Positions 1,538 to 39,021 of a stretch of DNA of 39,059 nucleotides are shown piece by piece. The stretch is from an uncultured Clostridia bacterium (GTDB taxonomy: Bacteria > Bacillota > Clostridia > Lachnospirales > CALKRZ01): assembly GCA_937989765.1 (NCBI GenBank), contig CALKRZ010000001.1, positions 1 to 39,059 on the forward strand, in the 5' to 3' direction. Numbering within the stretch: the first letter of the stretch is position 1; every line of letters begins with the position of its first letter. The notes beneath the pieces were generated by a model. It made no database searches and was not told the origin of the DNA. It saw only the letters and a program-made list of their open reading frames with translations. The translations under genes were made by a program, and so were the position numbers.

Positions 1538-1701
1538 CTTTATAAAACATGCGGTGGCGAGGCAACTAGATGTATCTGGAAATAACTGCAGCCAAAGAGC
1601 GCGTCCCACAGTGTCAACGAAACTTCCCCTTTGTACAAGCGCGATTTTGAAGGTATTGGAAGATATATCTAGTTGCCTCGCTACATGATTTTTTTATAAA
1701 G
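1538..1701 (+). mobile_element. Family-1 foldback repeat, copy A (divergent, MITE-like)
   Basis: Lies between the M23 stop codon and its terminator. The 78-nt core (1575-1652) aligns with the cores at 14463-14539, 22686-22762 and 26331-26407 (rc). Arms GCGAGGCAACTAGATGTATCT / AGATATATCTAGTTGCCTCGC pair with each other. Outer ends are CTTTATAAAA / TTTTATAAAG. No clear target duplication. Confidence 0.6.
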
Positions 1702-2676: not shown

Positions 2677-2727
2677 GGGTTGGATCTTTGTTTTACTACA
2701 TACTTTTTGGGAGATTCTAAGTTTTTA

Positions 2728-9958: not shown

Positions 9959-10756
9959 ATGGCATTACGATTTTGTACCATCGCCAGTGGTAGTAGTGGT
10001 AATAGTATATATATTGGCACGGCACATGCTCATATACTGGTAGATGCAGGGTTGAGCGGCAAACGTATTCAACAAGGACTCCAAAGTGTGCAATTGACAG
10101 GACAGCAGCTAGACGGGATTTTTATTACGCATGAGCATAGCGATCATATCAGAGGGGCAGGCATCCTGTCTAGACGATTTGATATTCCGATCTATGCTAC
10201 CCCAGGGACATGGTTGGGTATGAAGGACAAACTCGGAGAGATCGCTCCTCACAATCAAAATCATGTAGAAAAAGAACAGGATTGTATCATAAAGGATCTG
10301 TGTATCCATCCATATGAAATTCCGCATGATGCCAATGAGCCGGTAGGATATACTATTTGTACAGACCAACACAAAATATCTATTGCCACAGATTTGGGGC
10401 ATATTACCGAGATAGTAAAGCGTACTATTAAGGATTCAGATATACTGCTGCTAGAGTCCAATCATGATGTGGATATGGTCAAAGTGGGGAGGTACCCATA
10501 TTATCTGAAACAGCGCATCTTGGGATCTATGGGACATCTTTCCAATGAAAGTGCGGGAGAACTTCTGGTAGAACTTATATCGGGTCGTCTTAAGCATGTA
10601 TTCTTGGGTCATCTTAGTGAGGAAAACAACTTTCCAGAATTAGCGTACCAAACTGTCATCAATATCCTAGAGCAAAACCATATTAAAGTAGGTACCCATC
10701 TACAGATGGGCATGGCTCTCCGCCATGAACCTAGTCCAGTAGTAGCACTAGCATAA
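9959..10756 (+). CDS. walJ: MBL-fold metallo-hydrolase, WalJ/YycJ-like
   Basis: 265 aa. SGSSGNSIYI...ILVDAGLS and the HEHSDH metal motif. Located at the end of the wal locus. Confidence 0.85.
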   Translation: MALRFCTIASGSSGNSIYIGTAHAHILVDAGLSGKRIQQGLQSVQLTGQQLDGIFITHEHSDHIRGAGILSRRFDIPIYATPGTWLGMKDKLGEIAPHNQNHVEKEQDCIIKDLCIHPYEIPHDANEPVGYTICTDQHKISIATDLGHITEIVKRTIKDSDILLLESNHDVDMVKVGRYPYYLKQRILGSMGHLSNESAGELLVELISGRLKHVFLGHLSEENNFPELAYQTVINILEQNHIKVGTHLQMGMALRHEPSPVVALA

Positions 10757-10777: not shown

Positions 10778-10839
10778 GAAAGAGAAACATACAAGATCCT
10801 CTATATTTTCATATAGGGGATCTTGTATGTTTCTCTTTC
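10778..10839. terminator. Very long near-perfect hairpin between convergent walJ and the GDPD gene (bidirectional terminator candidate)
   Basis: GAAAGAGAAACATACAAGATCC pairs perfectly with GGATCTTGTATGTTTCTCTTTC (22 bp). The inner pairing CTATAT/ATATAG extends the stem. The apical loop is TTTC. Confidence 0.6.
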
Positions 10840-10852
10840 CTTCATTTTATAC

Positions 10853-11650
10853 CTATTGACTAACCCAATGAGTAGGCTGAAAGTGATCTGTATATATGCC
10901 ATATACACCATATTCTTGTAGTGTTTCATAGGTAGTAAGGCTGTTCACTGTATGAACAAATGTAGGTGTATTGACTTCTAACAAGCGCTTTGGCAAGGGA
11001 GATTGCCCACGATCTATGGGCATAGTAATGGCAAAGAGGGGAGAGGTACGGGCAAAATCTACCACTTCTTGATCTGACACATTCAATCGGTATAAGGTGA
11101 GGATCATATGTTCATACCCTAAGTCAGAGGCTTCCTGATGCTCAGCAAAAGAATAAATCTGGGGGATCAATTGAGGTACCATAGAAGGATGATGTTCTTT
11201 GATCCATTGGAGCATTTTGATATTTTCATTTTTGATATCTGTTACGATGAATGCATCCTTATGGGCAGAAAGCCATTTTTGTAGATCCTGAGTATCTAGT
11301 AGGGTTAGATTTTGAAAAGTCTTTTGCGTCTTAAACTGTGTATGAGTATAGACTGTAGGATGATCCATAAAGAGTCTCTTGACCATAGGGCTCCAATCAT
11401 GAATGAGTACAGGTACTTCGTCCTTTGTCCATTCAAAGTCCAACTCTATAAGGCGAAACCCATTTTGATAGGCTTGGTTCAGGGCTTCTAGAGAATTGGT
11501 ATAAGCAAATCCATAGATAGCCCCCCCGGCATGGGCTACGAGAGGTTGTAGAACTGGTTTTGCGGTAGGGGTACTCGTAGGATAGACGATCATAAACCCA
11601 ATAAAGCATATAATCAATAGCATACAGAGCTGTAGTATTTTCTTTTTCAT
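10853..11650 (-). CDS. Membrane-anchored glycerophosphodiester phosphodiesterase-like (GDPD/PI-PLC fold) protein
   Basis: N-terminal TM. VAHAGG...NSLEAL...FRLIELDFEWTKDEVPVLIHDW resembles the GDPD catalytic His/Glu/Asp/His pattern. Confidence 0.65.
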   Translation of the reverse strand: MKKKILQLCMLLIICFIGFMIVYPTSTPTAKPVLQPLVAHAGGAIYGFAYTNSLEALNQAYQNGFRLIELDFEWTKDEVPVLIHDWSPMVKRLFMDHPTVYTHTQFKTQKTFQNLTLLDTQDLQKWLSAHKDAFIVTDIKNENIKMLQWIKEHHPSMVPQLIPQIYSFAEHQEASDLGYEHMILTLYRLNVSDQEVVDFARTSPLFAITMPIDRGQSPLPKRLLEVNTPTFVHTVNSLTTYETLQEYGVYGIYTDHFQPTHWVSQ

Positions 11651-11748
11651 TATAATTCTCCTCTATGAGTAGATATGAGTCAGTAAAAGTTATATCTATA
11701 TAGTATAGAGGTATTACGAGCGGGATTCAATAGTTTTTATACAAGGAT

Positions 11749-12024
11749 CATAAGCGTAAACTTAAGCCATTACTTGGAAGTTTTCGCTCAAGGAGATATT
11801 TCATTTTCATAGCGTTCTAGTCGCTTGGGTTATAGATGCCCTGAGTGAACACGAATTATCTTTATTGCGAGTAAGCTGATGGATAGCACCATATCGTCCA
11901 CAACGGCTACCGAAGTTCGCTTCGTTCTAGTACATAGCAAGAAGCTCCACGAACTCTATTCAAATTGAAATATCTCCTTTCGCTTAGGCTATCTGCCATA
12001 TTATGGCTTAAGTTTACGCTTATG
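11749..12024. mobile_element. 276-bp foldback element with 22-bp perfect TIR and 10-bp flanking direct repeat (MITE-like; family 2)
   Basis: CATAAGCGTAAACTTAAGCCAT (11749-11770) is the exact reverse complement of 12003-12024. ATACAAGGAT occurs at 11739-11748 and 12025-12034. A subterminal inverted repeat, AAGGAGATATTTCA, is at 11790-11803 / 11966-11979. No credible ORF. Confidence 0.75.
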
Positions 12025-12049
12025 ATACAAGGATGTAAATCTGCAGATA

Positions 12050-14407: not shown

Positions 14408-14441
14408 GTAATGCATCAGTAGGATTCTAAAACAGTAACTA

Positions 14442-14732
14442 GTGGTAAGGCAAATATATTAATCTGGAAATAACTGCAACAAAGGAGCGCGTCCTAGATT
14501 ACAACAAAAATTCCCCCTTGTACAAGCGCGATTTTGCAGTTAGGCAACTGAAAATAAATAACTGGTCAAAGATGCTGAGGATATTTTGTGTCAGACAAGG
14601 AAGCAGGTTCCGTTGCTAGTGGGGCTATCATCGGGTTCTGCTGACGCAGTATGACGCAAAATAGACCAGCAGATTGACTAGTTATTTATTTTCAGTTGCC
14701 TTATTGGAAGATTAATATATTTGCCTTACCAC
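14442..14732 (+). mobile_element. Family-1 foldback repeat, copy B (interrupted by a nested element)
   Basis: Arms GTGGTAAGGCAAATATATTAATCT / AGATTAATATATTTGCCTTACCAC. The core at 14463-14539 is about 85-90 percent identical to copies C and D. Degenerate outer ends may reach ~14422 and ~14750. It lies between the convergent LtaS-SLH and HD-GYP genes. Confidence 0.75.
14543..14700. mobile_element. 158-bp foldback element nested inside copy B (family 3)
   Basis: 25-nt TIR GGCAACTGAAAATAAATAACTGGTC / GACTAGTTATTTATTTTCAGTTGCC (1 mismatch). Flanked by TTA on both sides (14540-14542 and 14701-14703). The interior halves are also mutually complementary. Copies A, C and D lack this insertion at the same point. 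Confidence 0.7.
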
Positions 14733-14752
14733 AGCTCTTTCCTTTGGATAAT

Positions 14753-21604: not shown

Positions 21605-22642
21605 ATGAGACAAAAAGCGATAACAATCAAGGATATAGGTAGAGAGTTAGGCATTTCACCGAGTACTGTATCTAGAGCGCTTAATAATTATGCGGATATC
21701 AATAAAGAAACCCGAGATAAAGTGATGCAAGTGGCTAAAAAGTTAAATTATACCCCGAATGTGATCGCCAGAAGTTTGGTGACTAATTCTACCAATCGCA
21801 TTGGCGTTTTAGTAGAAGACTTTGATATAGAAGGGGTATATAATGCATTTTATTATGAAATCCTTACAGGATTTAAACGGAGCGCTATGGAAAATGGATA
21901 CGAAGTAGTTCTGCTCTCTACTACTTCAGAAGAGCAAAAACAGGTTCCTTTTGAAAGACTTATTATAGAAAAGCAACTTGCAGGTGTTTTTGTCATGGGA
22001 CTTAGGACGGATGATGAATACTTCAAAAAACTCCAAGAGATAGAGTCTCCAGTCGTATTATTTGATATACCCATCAAAAAGCCTAACATGGGGTATATAT
22101 CAGTCAATAATATAGAGGCGGCTAAAATGGCGATGGAGCATTTGATAGGTCTTGGACATAGGAAGATTGCCTATGTCAATGGACATAAATGGGCGTATGT
22201 GAGTGAAGAGCGGCTCAATGGGTATTTGTTATCTCTTATGAAAAATAATATTGCGTATGACCCTAGCTTATGCTTTGAAGGAGACTATACTGAAGAAAGT
22301 GGTGTAAGAGCAGCAGAATATTTAATGGATAAGGGCATGACAGCCATATTTTTTGCCAGTGATATGATGGCAATCGGAGCCATGAAAAGATTGCAGCAAT
22401 TGGGATATGAGATTCCGACAGATCTATCCATCGTAGGATTTGACAATATTAATCTGTCTAGCTACATTACGCCCACATTGACCACGGTCAACCAAGATAA
22501 GTATGAGTTAGGGAGAACAGCGTATGTGATTTTAAGCAATCTAATTGCAAAGCAACCCATCAATCAAGTGATGTTGGATGCAGAATTGATTATCAGGCAT
22601 TCTACTGCAGCACCCTTAACGCCAAAGCAGGGCAAAAAATAA
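21605..22642 (+). CDS. LacI-family transcriptional regulator
   Basis: N-terminal HTH ITIKDIGRELGISPSTVSRALNN followed by a periplasmic-binding-protein-like sugar-binding core. Confidence 0.9.
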   Translation: MRQKAITIKDIGRELGISPSTVSRALNNYADINKETRDKVMQVAKKLNYTPNVIARSLVTNSTNRIGVLVEDFDIEGVYNAFYYEILTGFKRSAMENGYEVVLLSTTSEEQKQVPFERLIIEKQLAGVFVMGLRTDDEYFKKLQEIESPVVLFDIPIKKPNMGYISVNNIEAAKMAMEHLIGLGHRKIAYVNGHKWAYVSEERLNGYLLSLMKNNIAYDPSLCFEGDYTEESGVRAAEYLMDKGMTAIFFASDMMAIGAMKRLQQLGYEIPTDLSIVGFDNINLSSYITPTLTTVNQDKYELGRTAYVILSNLIAKQPINQVMLDAELIIRHSTAAPLTPKQGKK

Positions 22643-22643
22643 T

Positions 22644-22812
22644 GGATCTCAGAAAAAGTATGTGGTGGTAAGGTAAATATATAAATCTGGAAACAACTGC
22701 AACAAAGGAGCACGTCCCAGATTTCAACTAAACTTACCCTTTGCACAAGTGCGATTTTGCAGCTGCTTCTAGATTTATATATTTGCCTTACCACATACTT
22801 TTTCTGAGATCC
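22644..22812 (+). mobile_element. Family-1 foldback repeat, copy C (169 bp, intact)
   Basis: Terminal inverted repeat GGATCTCAGAAAAAGTATGTGG / CCACATACTTTTTCTGAGATCC. Flanked by AAAATAAT at 22636-22643 and 22813-22820. Starts 2 nt after the lacI-family stop codon. Confidence 0.85.
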
Positions 22813-22858
22813 AAAATAATAGAACCTCGAGAGGTTCTATTATTTTTTGCCCTGCTTT
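22813..22858. terminator. Bidirectional terminator hairpin (remnant of a 28-bp palindrome split by copy C)
   Basis: AAAATAATAGAACCTC..GAGGTTCTATTATTTT followed by TTGCCCTGCTTT. The right arm (22839-22858) is the reverse complement of 22624-22643. Confidence 0.65.
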
Positions 22859-26247: not shown

Positions 26248-26280
26248 ACGCTCACCTACTTTTAGTCATCAATTATTTTC

Positions 26281-26449
26281 GGATCTCAGAAAAAGTATGT
26301 GGTAAGGAAAATATATAAATCTTCCAACAACTGCAAAATCGCGCTTGTGCAAAGGATAAATGTAGTTGTAATTTGGGACGCGCTCCTTTGTTGCAGTTGT
26401 TTCCAGATTTATATATTTGCCTTACCACCGCATACTTTTTCTGAGATCC
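26281..26449 (-). mobile_element. Family-1 foldback repeat, copy D (169 bp, intact, inverted relative to copy C)
   Basis: 154/169 identical to the reverse complement of copy C by ungapped hand alignment. Flanked by TTATTTTC at 26273-26280 and 26450-26457. The right duplication contains the malQ stop codon. Confidence 0.85.
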
Positions 26450-28039
26450 TTATTTTCGGCCGTATACTGTGGATAGAGCCGCAAGACGCGTAGCATACTC
26501 TGGGCAAAGCTGATCTTTGGTGTATCTCCACTGCCAATTACCACTAGCGACTCCAGGCGTATTCATTCTTGATTCAGAGTCTAGACCCATCACATCTTGC
26601 ATAGGAACAATCGCTATATCAGATACAGAGGCAAATGCCAAGCGGATAAAATCCCACCATATTTCTTCTCCAGAAGTATTCATATACTGCTTGCAATATG
26701 CTTGATCTGCTTCAGAAGCTTTCTCATACCAACCTACAGTCGTGTCATTATCATGGGTACCTGTGTATACGACGGTGTTGGGGATGAAATTATGGGGAAT
26801 ATAGTTATTTTCTTCAGAAGAGTCAAATGCAAATTGAAGTATTTTCATGCCAGGGAAGTCAAATGCATCACGGAGTTCGATGACGCCTTCTGTAATGAGG
26901 CCTAGATCTTCTGCGATGATCGGTAATTTGCCTAAAGCTGTTTCGATGGCAATGAATAAGTCTTTGTCAGGTCCTTTTTCCCATACCCCTTGGATGGCAG
27001 TTTCTTCTCCAAAAGGAATAGACCAGTATGCTTCAAAGCCTCTAAAGTGGTCGATTCGAACGATATCTACTAATTCTAAAATACCTTTGATTCGTTCTAC
27101 CCACCAAGCATAGTTCGTATTTTTGTGGATTTCCCAATTATAGAGAGGATTTCCCCAAAGTTGTCCTGTAGCACTAAAATAATCAGGTGGAACACCAGCC
27201 ACTACGGTAGGATATCCTTTCTCATCTAGATAAAAAAGACCTGGATTTCCCCATACATCTGCACTATCATAGGCTACAAAGATAGGAATATCTCCAATCA
27301 CCTGAATGTTTTTGTCATTAGCATAGGTTTTAAGTGCACGCCATTCGGTATAAAACTCAAATTGAAGGAATTTATAGTATTCGATATCATCCGCAAGACG
27401 AGCAGTCCATTCTTTAATCGCTTCAGGGCGTCTTAAGGCAATGCCTTCTTCCCAAGTACTCCAAACAGCACCGAAATAATAATCCTTTACAGATTTCTCA
27501 TTTAAATACTTTTGATTGGCGGCGGCAAAATCTTCAAAGGCTTCATCCATGCCAGAAGCAGTTCTGACCCGAATATAATAATCTTTTAAGGAGACAAATA
27601 GAGTGTAATCATTTAACCAAATTTTATTTACTTCACAAAATTCTTCAAATTTTGCTTTTTGGGCAGCCGTGCCTGTCTTCTTGAAATTTTGGTATGCTTT
27701 TCTAAAAAGTTGGGATTTATAATTAATCACGGGGCCGTAATCTAACTTTGTATCATCAAAAGCGGGAACTTCAGCCACGTCACTTTCATCTAATAACCCA
27801 TCCACAATCAGCTTATCAGGGCTTATTAATAAAGGATTTCCTGCAAAAGCAGAAAAGCACTGATAAGGTGAATCACCAAAACTAGTAGGACCAAGTGGTA
27901 AGACTTGCCAAAGTTTTTGTTTACCTTTGCTTAAAAAATCAATAAACTCAAAAGCATCTTTTCCTAAATCTCCAATACCAAAGCGACTGGGAAATGAAGT
28001 AGGATGTACCAAAATACCGCTGGATCTTTCAAAAGCCAT
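26450..28039 (-). CDS. malQ: 4-alpha-glucanotransferase (amylomaltase, GH77)
   Basis: 529 aa. SGILVHPTSFPS..GIGDLG, SPYQCFSAFAGNPLLIS, VRIDHFRGF and THDNDT are GH77 signatures. Confidence 0.9.
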   Translation of the reverse strand: MAFERSSGILVHPTSFPSRFGIGDLGKDAFEFIDFLSKGKQKLWQVLPLGPTSFGDSPYQCFSAFAGNPLLISPDKLIVDGLLDESDVAEVPAFDDTKLDYGPVINYKSQLFRKAYQNFKKTGTAAQKAKFEEFCEVNKIWLNDYTLFVSLKDYYIRVRTASGMDEAFEDFAAANQKYLNEKSVKDYYFGAVWSTWEEGIALRRPEAIKEWTARLADDIEYYKFLQFEFYTEWRALKTYANDKNIQVIGDIPIFVAYDSADVWGNPGLFYLDEKGYPTVVAGVPPDYFSATGQLWGNPLYNWEIHKNTNYAWWVERIKGILELVDIVRIDHFRGFEAYWSIPFGEETAIQGVWEKGPDKDLFIAIETALGKLPIIAEDLGLITEGVIELRDAFDFPGMKILQFAFDSSEENNYIPHNFIPNTVVYTGTHDNDTTVGWYEKASEADQAYCKQYMNTSGEEIWWDFIRLAFASVSDIAIVPMQDVMGLDSESRMNTPGVASGNWQWRYTKDQLCPEYATRLAALSTVYGRK

Positions 28040-28416: not shown

Positions 28417-29010
28417 ATGAAGACATTTGGAAAAATTATAATTGCAGGAAGTATAATGGCCACGCTTTTATTACCTGGTTGTGCTGCCTATGACAATCAA
28501 GCAGGAAATCGTGGTGCAGGTATGGAAAACCGCGTAGGAATGGGTGCAGGTGGTGCAGGTGGAATAGGTGGCGCAGGAACTGGAATGGGCGCAGGTGGAA
28601 TAGGTGGAATAGGCGGTGCAGGTGGAACTGGAATGGGCGCAGCTGGAAGAGGTGGCGCAGGAGTAGAGAATAGAATGGCTACGAATGTAAGAGATCCTTT
28701 TATTACAGATAACAGACTGAACAATGCACCACTTGGAGGTCGTACTGGTCAAGTAGGTGAAGCGGATACAGCAAGAAGAATTACCACTCAAGGAGTAATT
28801 CCAGGAACAGGCGTAGGAATGGCTCCAGCAACAACTCGAGGAACTACAATGGATCGTACAGCGATGACAGGCACACCGAATTATATGATCAATGATTATG
28901 CGCTTGGAAATCGAATTGGTGTAACAGGTCAAGATGCAATGCGTAATGGAACAGTAGCGAGAACACCCATGCCTGAAACAACAAGAAAAACAGCAGCAGG
29001 AACAAGATAA
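28417..29010 (+). CDS. Low-complexity Gly/Met/Ala/Thr/Arg-rich lipoprotein, function unknown
   Basis: AAGGAGG RBS. Signal peptide with lipobox LLPGC. GAGG(I/T)GG and GMG repeats. No globular region evident. Terminator follows. Confidence 0.6.
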   Translation: MKTFGKIIIAGSIMATLLLPGCAAYDNQAGNRGAGMENRVGMGAGGAGGIGGAGTGMGAGGIGGIGGAGGTGMGAAGRGGAGVENRMATNVRDPFITDNRLNNAPLGGRTGQVGEADTARRITTQGVIPGTGVGMAPATTRGTTMDRTAMTGTPNYMINDYALGNRIGVTGQDAMRNGTVARTPMPETTRKTAAGTR

Positions 29011-36663: not shown

Positions 36664-38955
36664 ATGGGTCTCAAATTAAATTTTATATTCAACGATGCAG
36701 GTAAACGTTTGCTAAAAAAAGGTACACAAAAGAAACCTATACGCAGCTGGAAATTACCAAAGCTTGTGGATAGAAGCATAGAGAAAAAAGGTTTGGCACC
36801 TTCTGCTACAGGAAAGAAAGATCCTATTGCTTTCTTGCAAGGAATAGTAAAACCGAGAATTGGGGTTCGAATATTTGTACTATTTGTGCCTGTAATTTTG
36901 GTTGCAGTAATCCTAGTAGGTGTGCAGTCTTACCAGACAGCTAGAGACTCTATTATCAAACAGTTTGAAGCTTCTTCTCTTCAAGGGTTGCAGCAAACCA
37001 ATCTATACTTTAAGGTGATGAGTGAAAAATATGATGCAGAGAGTGTAAAGGCACTGCGAAGTGGAACATTGATCTACCGAGTACAGAGTGAGCCTAGCAA
37101 AGATGCTTCTTTTATGCAGCTCCTTAATCAGGATAGTAATCAATGGCAGGGTGCAGAAAAGGGACAAAAAAAATCAGCTATTGTAGCGGCGATTAGAGAT
37201 CTGCAAGCAGCGGATGTAGCATTACACTCTGTCTGGATTTTGAGAGAAAAAGAAATATCATTTGGAACGGCTGGGTTTGATTTTAAAAGAGAAAATAATA
37301 TTACATATTCAGAGATTCCTTGGTTTAATAAGCTTCAAAATCAAGATGAGAAAGAACGTGGAAATAAGGCTTTTTGGATCAGTACGCATCTAGAAGAATT
37401 CACGACCAAACCGCAGGATGTAATTTCTCTGGTTCGGTGGATTCGGATGCCAAATCCCAAAAATGGTTCATTAGATGGTGGTTTATATATCTTCAATCTT
37501 AAACCTCAATTTCTGGATGAAGCATTAGATGCTTATGAAGAACACGCACCCGAAGGTGCATTTATGTTCATCTTGGATGGAGAAGGAACAGTTTTGAACC
37601 ATCCTAATAAAGAAGTGGTGAAAGAATCATGGAAAGATCAAGAGTATGTGCAAGATATTTTAAATTCTCGAACTTCATATGGGACAACTACGTATCGTGA
37701 AAATGGGGAAACTTATTTTGTTACCTTTAATACTTCTGAAAGTACTGGGTGGAAGCTAGTAGCCGTCACGCCACAGAGTGTGATGATGAAGGATATAGAA
37801 GTAATTAAGTCAAAGATTGTATTTATGGGGATCTTCTGTATATTTTTGGCAGCGATCATTACCGTGCTCCTCTCTATTAGTATTTCAAGACCCATCAATC
37901 GAATGATGCAGATCATGAAGACGGTAGAAGGTGGAGATTTGACCACTCGAATGAAGGTTTCAAGGATGGATGAAATTGGTCTTTTGAGTTTGAGCTTTAA
38001 TACGATGCTTGAAAAGGTACAGCAGCTTTTTGTGCAGTCTGCCAATTCTTCTGTATCAGTGGTAAATGCTTCTCAGAAAATGAATAAAACTACCCAAGAT
38101 AATCTAAAAATTACAAAAGAAATATCTCGAGCGATAGAAAGTATTTCGCAAGGGTTAGAGCAACAATCAGGTAGTCTTACAAATAGTGTAGGTATGATTA
38201 GTCAGCTATCAGATAAGATGGGGATTGTAATTAACTATTCGGGACTCGTTGCTGGGTCTTCTAGACAAGCAAGTCAAGTAAGCAAGCAAGGAAAACAAAC
38301 AGTGAGCAAGCTTCAGGAAAAATCCATACAGACGCAGAAAATTGTGGAGGAAGTCATTACATCTATTCAAGAACTGGGTAAATATTCTGTGACCATCGGC
38401 AATATACTAAAGACCATCACTTTTATTGCCAATGAAACCAATCTCCTCTCTTTGAATGCATCTATTGAAGCAGCTAGAGCAGGAGAAGCAGGAAGAGGTT
38501 TTGCGGTAGTAGCCAATGAAGTGCGAAAACTAGCACAGCAGTCATCAAACGCAGCAGGAGAAATTTCTAGCATTATCGGAAATATTCAAGAAAAGATTAA
38601 AAATGCAGAGGACATTACCTCTAAAGTATATGTAATCACTACAGAGCAGGATGAATATGTGGGCAATACAGCAGGCGCATTTGATGGAATTAATTATTCT
38701 GTGGATATCATTATGAAAGATATTAATAATTTGGATTTGGCCATCGAAGATATGACAGTCTATAAAGATAAGATTCTTGATTTTATTACAGATATTTCGG
38801 CCATATCAGAAGAATCAGCAGCTGCATCAGAAGAAATCTCTGCCTCTACTATGGAGCAAGGGAGTGCTATGGAATCTCTAGCAGAATATGCAGATCACCT
38901 CAATGAAATAGCAGGACAACTTCAGCAGTCCATTCGTCATTTCAAGATTTCATAA
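36664..38955 (+). CDS. Methyl-accepting chemotaxis protein (Cache-like sensor, HAMP, MA domain)
   Basis: Two TM segments flank a ~290-aa extracytoplasmic domain. HAMP region. Signalling hairpin [30 protein letters not shown]. An unusual ~65-aa Lys-rich segment precedes TM1. Confidence 0.85.
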
Positions 38956-39021
38956 TCTTTTTGTGAAATCTACATAGTAATAAGGTAAATATCTTAATAA
39001 ATACTAATTTTTATAAAAAAA

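Follow-up and report, generated by a model that had tools for sequence, protein, structure and literature searches.

Concerted change of paired arms in a family of hairpin-forming mobile repeats from an uncultured Clostridia bacterium

Introduction

Contig CALKRZ010000001.1 (C1), a 39,059-nt stretch of DNA from an uncultured Clostridia bacterium which is referred to here as the window, carries at positions 1538-1701 a divergent copy of a repeated element. This copy, named copy A, has kept the pairing of its hairpin rather than its sequence, and the question raised by the locus is what holds the two arms together. Covariation usually counts as the strongest evidence that an RNA structure is functional; the initial annotation of the locus, which was made from the sequence of the window, offered either selection on a nucleic-acid structure or arm-to-arm templated repair. 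In this study, the relatives of copy A were collected from the 2.30-Mb metagenome-assembled genome (MAG; 244 contigs, 37.7% G+C, 80% complete) to which the window belongs. It appears, with a probability that we put at about even, that the arms are kept matched by arm-to-arm templated correction at the DNA level, as in template switching at quasipalindromes.

Paired changes in copy A

Copy A is a member of a family of miniature transposable elements with inverted repeats (MITEs), and its parts are arranged as follows.

1535-1703, + strand: copy A, a decayed singleton of the 169-nt MITE family; core orientation sense to the upstream gene
1538-1551, + strand: degenerate left outer arm, CTTTATAAAACATG; pairs with 1684-1701
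1555-1577, + strand: left arm of the 23-bp middle stem, TGGCGAGGCAACTAGATGTATCT; pairs with 1661-1683 and carries five both-sided changes
1581-1591, + strand: left arm of the inner 11-bp stem, AATAACTGCAG, after the GGA loop at 1578-1580; pairs with 1647-1657
1592-1646, + strand: asymmetric core, which sets the orientation, with blocks GAGCGCGTCC and ACAAGCGCGATTTTG, a GCGC/GCGC helix and a variable loop (from the conservation profile)
1647-1657, + strand: right arm of the inner stem, TTTGAAGGTAT; then the GGA internal loop at 1658-1660
1661-1683, + strand: right arm of the middle stem, AGATATATCTAGTTGCCTCGCTA; partner of 1555-1577
1684-1701, + strand: degenerate right outer arm, CATGATTTTTTTATAAAG; pairs with the left outer arm

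The sequences first described for 1538-1701 are found there, and the element itself is slightly longer, with a degenerate left end near 1535 (AAATCTTTATAAAACATG versus GGATCTCAGAAAAAGTATG in the family). The nhmmer match of copy A covers 1542-1694 (model positions 11-162) with 103 bits, which places it among the lowest-scoring full-length copies. It is 79-83% identical to every other copy, in agreement with the core conservation of about 80% estimated initially, and of the 19 positions of the family's terminal inverted repeat (TIR), its two ends match about 12 and 11, as read from the alignment.

The 17-nt left arm CGAGGCAACTAGATGTA (1558-1574) and right arm TATATCTAGTTGCCTCG (1664-1680) of copy A were compared with their counterparts in a young copy of the window, copy C (TAAGGTAAATATATAAA and TTTATATATTTGCCTTA), with position i paired with position 18-i. 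All five double changes listed in the initial annotation are present (T-A to C-G, A-T to G-C, A-T to C-G, T-A to G-C, and A-T to T-A), as are two one-sided changes, T-G to C-G and A-T to G-T, which only exchange a Watson-Crick pair and a G-T pair. These last two, emphasised in the initial annotation, correspond to the outcome of random transitions. The outer ends CTTTATAAAA and TTTTATAAAG do differ from those of the family and yet remain inverted repeats, as had been noticed; a derived TTAT occupies both outer arms where the family end has CAGA or CTGA.

The both-sided changes of the middle stem sit at family positions 25, 26, 33, 36, and 40, and the stem consists of 21 Watson-Crick pairs and two G-T wobbles (family pairs 23-148 and 39-132). 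The inner stem contains one both-sided change, C-G to T-A, which is common to five other old copies, together with two mismatches and one wobble. When the 23-nt middle stem is compared with the family consensus, there are six changes in the left arm and five in the right; all five right-arm changes face a left-arm change and all are complementary, a pattern with a probability by chance of about 7e-7 (hand calculation, C(6,5)/C(23,5) x (1/3)^5). Folded as + strand RNA, 1538-1701 forms a single long hairpin of -61.5 kcal/mol (z = -7.5, with none of 200 shuffles as stable), the - strand reaches -53.7 kcal/mol, and the same interval as DNA has -33.4 kcal/mol (z = -6.4).

Concerted change across the family

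An iterated nhmmer search of the genome gave 116 non-overlapping matches on about 100 contigs, 79 of them full length with flanks; the family comprises about 100 copies of a 169-nt non-coding element without an open reading frame (ORF). From the outside inwards, the consensus is built of 19-bp TIRs, a 3-nt bulge, the 23-bp middle stem, a GGA/GGA internal loop, the 11-bp inner stem, and a 54-nt asymmetric core, which holds a short GCGC/GCGC helix as well as a variable loop; the register of the middle stem, i.e. the place of the 3-nt bulge, was set by covariation at positions 24-26. The ends, GGATCTC[A/T]G[A/C]AAAAGTATG and its complement, form a terminal inverted repeat. Of the 50 copies whose ends can be recognised, 29 have a perfect A+T-rich target-site duplication (TSD) of 8 bp, and in 8 more the two repeats agree at 7 of 8 positions. 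With its TIRs, 8-bp TSD, small size, lack of coding sequence, and many dispersed copies, the family is a MITE family.

In addition, there are 29 mini elements of 48 nt, each made up of both 18-19-bp ends plus 12 nt from the left arm (GTGGTAAGGCAA), for example C188:8663-8710, C191:9604-9651, and C54:9836-9883, with a degenerate one at window positions 2683-2717. Several minis are flanked by an 8-bp direct repeat, as judged by eye. Since the minis keep only the ends, the ends alone appear to be sufficient for mobility, and the 23-bp and 11-bp stems would therefore not be transposase sites.

Both-sided changes are family-wide and not special to copy A. In the middle stem of the 79 full copies, 44 both-sided Watson-Crick cells were counted against a shuffle mean of 2.4 (maximum 8 in 1000 shuffles), and only three both-sided changes are unpaired; the inner stem has 8 both-sided cells against 0.95 in shuffles. 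A second alignment of 45 copies, made of the divergent half of the copies and a consensus-like row, has 96.5% of its cells paired and shows both-sided change in 21 of 38 pairs and in 57 cells, whereas shuffles give 4.8 and 6.3 and none of 500 reaches the observed values. When the register of this alignment is slid, only 4-11 pairs show both-sided change and 32-47% of cells are paired. The GCGC helix of the core covaries as well, with G-C to A-U in three and C-G to U-A in two of the 45 aligned copies.

As distinct types in the inner helices of the 79 full copies, there are 33 both-sided Watson-Crick, 3 both-sided unpaired, and 64 one-sided changes; these counts may include recurrent mutation or, conversely, one inherited event. 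In this genome-wide collection, arm changes are thus not mostly non-compensatory, given that fewer than 3 compensatory types are expected against 64 one-sided ones. A stricter count was restricted to states present in a single copy, which removes shared ancestry. There are 26 such private changes in the left and 26 in the right arms; nine lie at partner positions and all nine are complementary, where 0.82 is expected (Poisson 2e-7). The initial proposal that pairing is kept rather than sequence therefore stands, far beyond chance, for copy A and for the family.

The arms are AT-rich and of low complexity, and the MAG is fragmented with repeats often located at contig ends, so that chance or an artefact of alignment or assembly might be considered. 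This explanation is hardly credible: none of the 500 or 1000 shuffles reaches the observed counts, pairing collapses in the slid registers, the flanks of copy A, which is 1.5 kb inside a 39-kb contig, are unique, and the pattern in copy A alone already has the very small chance probability given above.

The window contains four copies of the family, of which copy D has the opposite orientation. Besides copy A they are:

14426-14740, + strand: copy B, of old type; right inner arm interrupted by a repeat of a second family, F2 (about 14531-14712)
22644-22812, + strand: copy C, a young 169-nt copy; TSD AAAATAAT at 22636-22643 and 22813-22820
26281-26449, - strand: copy D, a young 169-nt copy; TSD TTATTTTC at 26273-26280 and 26450-26457

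Copy B has a both-sided change of its own, A-T to T-A (ATATTAATCT and AGATTAATAT). A solo degenerate fragment of the left arm (AAATCTACATAGTAATAAGGTAAATATCTTAAT) is also present at 38966-38998, immediately after the stop codon of ORF 36664-38955. Elsewhere in the genome, about 2.5 units are arrayed in tandem at C30:16291-16687, repeating every 160 nt or so. Five both-sided changes are present in the last unit, whose arms match perfectly, while the right arm of the internal unit is six transitions away from that of the last unit and is badly mismatched.

Proposed templated correction of the arms

The changes that are shared by the two arms are not limited to single substitutions. Two copies (C36 and C188) each lack one base at corresponding positions of both arms, and in a third (C110) the dinucleotide change AA to GC stands opposite TT to GC. 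The transposase-binding ends follow the same pattern: the ends of the minis show 12 both-sided Watson-Crick types versus 7 unpaired ones, and both ends of the family occur in two allelic forms, CAGA/TCTG and CTGC/GCAG, between which they have switched jointly. Stepwise selection would hardly produce the matched deletions, the dinucleotide changes, and the both-sided changes of the ends; they follow directly if one arm templates the other.

The mutation spectrum points in the same direction. Both-sided types comprise 15 transitions and 18 transversions versus 38 and 26 among the one-sided types (Fisher p = 0.2); in rRNA stems, 61% of changes are of the type able to pass through a G-U intermediate (PMC8794818). 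Among one-sided transition mismatches, G-T falls on the top and the bottom strand in 13 types each, i.e. G-T is no commoner than A-C, and wobbles make up 28% of the tallied one-sided types, which is about the level of random mutation. The element also has the features of a quasipalindrome target, being a foldable imperfect inverted repeat with both-sided, multi-base, and indel variants that match the opposite arm. In bacteria, template switching within imperfect inverted repeats is an established cause of mutation, and it has been proposed to perfect such repeats (PMC5941160) and to mimic compensatory changes in hairpins (PMC8794818).

The proposed process can be potentially described as follows. 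A point mutation or a 1-nt deletion would first appear in one arm. During replication, the nascent second arm would be briefly templated by the first, either by folding back or through pairing across the fork, and this switch would erase the change or write its complement into the other arm. With repetition over time, the sequence would drift and the pairing would stay. Of the two alternatives offered for copy A at the outset, the spectrum, the deletions, and the ends of the minis thus lean towards arm-to-arm repair and away from selection on structure.

Selection at the RNA level is nevertheless a possible, if somewhat improbable, explanation, in which the element, co-transcribed as part of the 3' untranslated region (3' UTR) as copy A would be in the peptidase mRNA, could act as a stabilising or processing hairpin and its pairing would be restored by ordinary compensatory evolution. 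Copy A sits between a stop codon and a terminator, and the family is found mostly at gene 3' ends, with 18 convergent versus 4 divergent contexts and with 30 of the 46 tandem-context copies sense to the flanking genes (p = 0.054; contexts assigned by a longest-ORF heuristic). On the transcribed strand, transition mismatches of the middle and inner stems are G-U more often than A-C (23:11, p = 0.058), the folding of sense copies is relatively better by 2.5 kcal/mol (p = 0.06), and the + strand of copy A folds better than its - strand by 7.8 kcal/mol. The stems and core flanks change 2-4 times slower than the loop and ends, and the same reading has been proposed for the transcribed MITE-like bcr1 of Bacillus (PMC3184786). 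However, the G-U excess is absent from the outer stems (9:8) and the minis (8:9), and pooling gives a ratio of 40:28, which lacks significance. Transversions, for which no wobble intermediate is possible, account for more than half of the both-sided types; deletions are matched in both arms; the transposase-binding ends behave alike; and antisense copies (35%) are equally well paired. Selection on RNA would, moreover, have to be effective at about 130 separate loci, each time on single mismatches within a 60-bp hairpin, and the element has no Rfam match.

A further question is whether the both-sided states were present before insertion. The initial annotation had named membership of copy A in a separate subfamily with a parent insertion sequence (IS) of its own as a result that would overturn its claim, and this objection fails since no other element of the genome has the arms or ends of copy A: a genome search for its arms and end sequence, with 2-4 mismatches allowed, found no other site, and copy A is about equally distant from all copies and has no close partner. 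Three of its six both-sided changes are private (positions 25, 26, and 33) and three (36-135, 40-131, and 50-121) are shared with other old copies. With changes in part private and in part shared, copy A appears to descend from an old state of the family and to have evolved alone thereafter. Its divergence, estimated from the alignments, is about 37% in the ends, 26% in the loop, and 25% in the stems with both-sided changes included, and these similar values fit uniform decay after insertion accompanied by arm correction.

Inheritance from diverging source copies would also account for the sharing. Lineages with good hairpins or matching ends would have transposed more, old copies would be snapshots of lost sources, and copy A would be all that is left of an old sub-lineage, which a variant transposase may have mobilised. 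Three of the changes of copy A are shared, 11 of the 33 both-sided types occur in two or more copies, old copies share states such as TAGTGG for GTGGTGG, the end alleles CAGA and CTGC are each found in many copies, and the stems are conserved on internal branches. We nevertheless consider inheritance unlikely. The other 22 both-sided types are private to one copy, the shared types are distributed incongruently among copies, copy A has no relative sharing its arms or ends, and a private both-sided change is already present in young copies that differ little otherwise (C139 and C58:8278). If the terminal 18-19 bp suffice to move, as the minis suggest, mobility would not select for the 23-bp and 11-bp stems. 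The ends of copy A carry both-sided departures from the family end, which is hard to square with selection for mobility by the same enzyme, and no matching transposase was found in the MAG.

Templated correction, in turn, has several observations to contend with. By parsimony on terminal branches, the stems change 2-4 times slower than the loop and outer ends; these rates are counts on a poorly resolved copy tree, singleton-per-site rates having been dropped as saturated in the fast zones. Since unbiased arm copying predicts the neutral rate, either constraint or a lower mutation rate in paired DNA would also act. Even in old copies, the 3x3 internal loop, where each arm reads TGGAA on one and the same strand, is not converted to pairs, and some copies have badly mismatched arms (C30:16361, C125, and C226). 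Three weak signals of the transcribed strand, i.e. sense bias, G-U excess, and sense folding, each have p of about 0.06, and they vanish in the outer stems and minis. Finally, no orthologous insertion was found in any collection searched; therefore, we infer rather than observe that the changes took place after insertion. Template switching in replication, rather than mismatch repair on an extruded hairpin, is likewise inferred as the mechanism.

The internal loop lies at family positions 45-47 and 124-126 (1578-1580 and 1658-1660 in copy A) and forms a direct repeat, the left side of which is nearly invariant, old copies included. In one young subfamily its right side has changed from TTGTTGGAAG to CTGCTTCTAG, by which the loop is closed and two A-C mismatches are opened.

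Two other schemes, which we regard together as rather doubtful, would give the stems a role of their own. In one, the 23-bp and 11-bp stems with GAGCGCGTCC and ACAAGCGCGATTTTG would be a selected module at about 100 loci after decay of the ends, either as an RNA hairpin of the 3' UTR or as a site for a host protein; the MITE would then have been domesticated genome-wide as a post-transcriptional element in an unsampled lineage of Clostridia. In the other, the family would transpose by way of a single-stranded hairpin intermediate whose arms proof-read each other, and this would be new for an element that makes a TSD.

Relation to known repeats

Template-switch mutation at quasipalindromes, or the concerted evolution of the arms of inverted repeats, is associated with Ripley (1982) and the Lovett laboratory (see also PMC5941160 and PMC8794818). 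The present family resembles such sites in that it is an imperfect inverted repeat able to form a hairpin, that changes in one arm recur as the complement in the other, including multi-base changes and indels, and that no wobble intermediate is required and any strand may be affected. The evidence here comes from standing variation among about 100 paralogous copies, as opposed to mutation assays or comparison of orthologues. The arms are also long, at about 55 bp including a bulge and the internal loop, and the stems evolve slower than the unpaired parts, unlike what template switching alone would give.

Small hairpin-forming repeats are found in many copies between genes in other bacteria, such as pneumococcal RUP, BOX, and SPRITE, neisserial Correia, and enterobacterial ERIC elements, which are often in transcripts. 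Their sequences are unrelated to this family and their TSD lengths are different, and scans of the window gave no Rfam match for any of them.

The bcr1 and Group A bcr repeats of the Bacillus cereus group are MITE-like and about 155 bp long (PMC3184786). They are compared here by their features; no likeness in sequence was seen, although none was looked for. Like this family, bcr1 is a Firmicute intergenic repeat of similar size with a long hairpin, short flanking direct repeats, many copies, and compensatory base-pair changes (PMC3184786). The compensation in bcr1 was read as conservation at the RNA level and its transcription was shown (PMC3184786), whereas the present family is known from DNA alone and has a strand-symmetric mismatch spectrum. 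The direct repeats of bcr1 are 5 bp long, unlike the 8-bp TSD found here.

REPINs, which are doublets of REP sequences, are not known to make a TSD and are tied to a RAYT gene. In contrast, the 8-bp TSD of this family is typical of DDE transposases. Membership among REPINs was considered and is excluded by the clear 8-bp TSD and by the absence of a linked RAYT gene, the Y1 genes of this genome not being located beside copies. The likeness lies elsewhere: REPINs, moved by RAYT tyrosine transposases, are also hairpin-forming, non-autonomous, and extragenic with conserved arms, and compensatory changes have already been reported in them (PMC3116915).

The family is new; compensatory change in hairpin-forming mobile repeats is already known, so it is a clean example rather than new biology. 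In one genome, it provides a single long hairpin in about 100 paralogous copies that differ in age, together with 33 both-sided replacements that look independent, deletions matched between the arms, and a mismatch spectrum that can be measured. Since the spectrum looks like arm copying at the DNA level, the family is a cautionary case: in palindromic mobile DNA, a mutational mechanism can be enough to pass covariation tests of the R-scape type. The family could also serve as a natural data set on which arm copying outside Proteobacteria is measured.

Genomic setting of copy A and search for a parent transposase

Copy A is an old, immobile single MITE copy, inserted downstream of the stop codon of an M23 peptidase gene and ahead of its terminator. 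The neighbouring features are:

2-1519, + strand: LysM-G5-M23 peptidase gene, upstream of copy A
1710-1738, + strand: intrinsic terminator of the peptidase gene, 3' of copy A; 10-bp stem at 1710-1732 followed by a T run

From the stop codon of the peptidase gene there are about 16 nt to the degenerate end of copy A (1535) and 19 nt to the hairpin (1538), and copy A ends 9 nt upstream of the canonical terminator. Because this terminator sits downstream, copy A lies inside the 3' UTR. In a distant relative (L001, the one at 51% identity), the stop codon of the same gene is directly followed by a terminator without an element between them. The neighbouring protein itself has no record elsewhere and its closest homologue is only 51% identical, so that orthologous insertions could not be compared; its homologues place the organism among Clostridia of the Peptostreptococcales type. 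The idea that copy A could act as a terminator is therefore unlikely, and it was rejected as a candidate given the separate canonical terminator. For annotation, copy A and its relatives are to be labelled as MITE copies and not as terminators or RNA genes. No TSD can be assigned to copy A because TTTATAAA, which is present on both sides, is itself palindromic.

Two further functions were considered for the family and rejected. An outward promoter has one weak consensus match in copy C, no more than in shuffles; as for a leader peptide, the AAAGGAG of the core (AAAAGAG in old copies) has no start codon at the right distance.

No copy of the family was found among 40 genomes of the same order, and a scan with an exact pattern of the core gave no match in collections of genome and metagenome contigs. 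Rfam 15 gave no match at the gathering score in the whole window, a permissive scan of copy C gave chance-level matches only, and no tRNA or tmRNA was found in a scan.

Pfam searches of the MAG recovered no ISL3, IS6/IS240, IS256, or rve transposase. The sole DDE_Tnp_1 gene (C195) is ISAs1-like and has no MITE-like ends, the solo ends have ordinary genes as neighbouring ORFs, and TnpB is absent from the genome. The Y1 transposase genes are unlinked to copies, and the flanks of the Y1_Tnp matches (C142 and C176) do not contain motifs of the element. As the assembly is incomplete, failure to find a partner transposase proves little. The 8-bp TSD is compatible with both the IS6 and ISL3 families, neither of which is represented by a transposase in the MAG. 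The ends of the MITE resemble the IS6-type end GGTTCTGTTGCAAAGT; a derivation from IS6 or ISL3 is presumably best treated as a tentative lead.

One of the Y1 matches is a 326-aa ORF at C176:735-1715 (minus strand) with an N-terminal Y1 (IS200-like) transposase domain and with no MITE or F2 nearby; C142:11463-11678 is a second Y1 fragment with a stop codon.

Other repeats in the window and genome

The F2 repeats, one of which is nested in copy B at 14531-14712, form a second family of 164-182 nt with about 35 copies in the genome (e.g. C215:6083-6245 and C132:5591-5753). Their ends, TAAGGCAAC and GTTGCCTTA, share the motif TAAGGCAA with the middle stem of the MITE. An internal hairpin of F2 covaries (CCGTTGC/GCGG, CCCTTGA/TCAAGGGG, and CCCATGA/TCATGGGG), and the subterminal arms occur in two co-varying forms, AACTGGTCA/TGACCAGTT and AACTTTGCAA/TTGCAAAGTT, with a few hybrid copies. 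Some copies have a tandem insert of 18 or 36 nt. An Rfam scan of F2 gave no match, with chance-level matches only in a permissive scan; F2 looks like a structured, possibly RNA-like mobile element. Two chimeras, C152:137-1 and C244:33656-33804, consist of the left end of the MITE joined to the body of F2 at the shared TAAGGCAA.

Three more repeats are present in the window. A further inverted-repeat element at 11734-12039, with 47-nt arms that are 79% complementary and 212 nt apart, lies in a divergent intergenic region. The near-perfect 29-bp palindrome at 10778-10839, which has a 4-nt loop and lies between the convergent ORFs 9959-10756 (+) and 10853-11650 (-), is probably a bidirectional terminator. 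Imperfect tandem GGN-rich repeats (GGAATGGGTGCAGGTGG...) at 28537-28670, within ORF 28417-29010, are predicted to encode a Gly-rich segment of low complexity.

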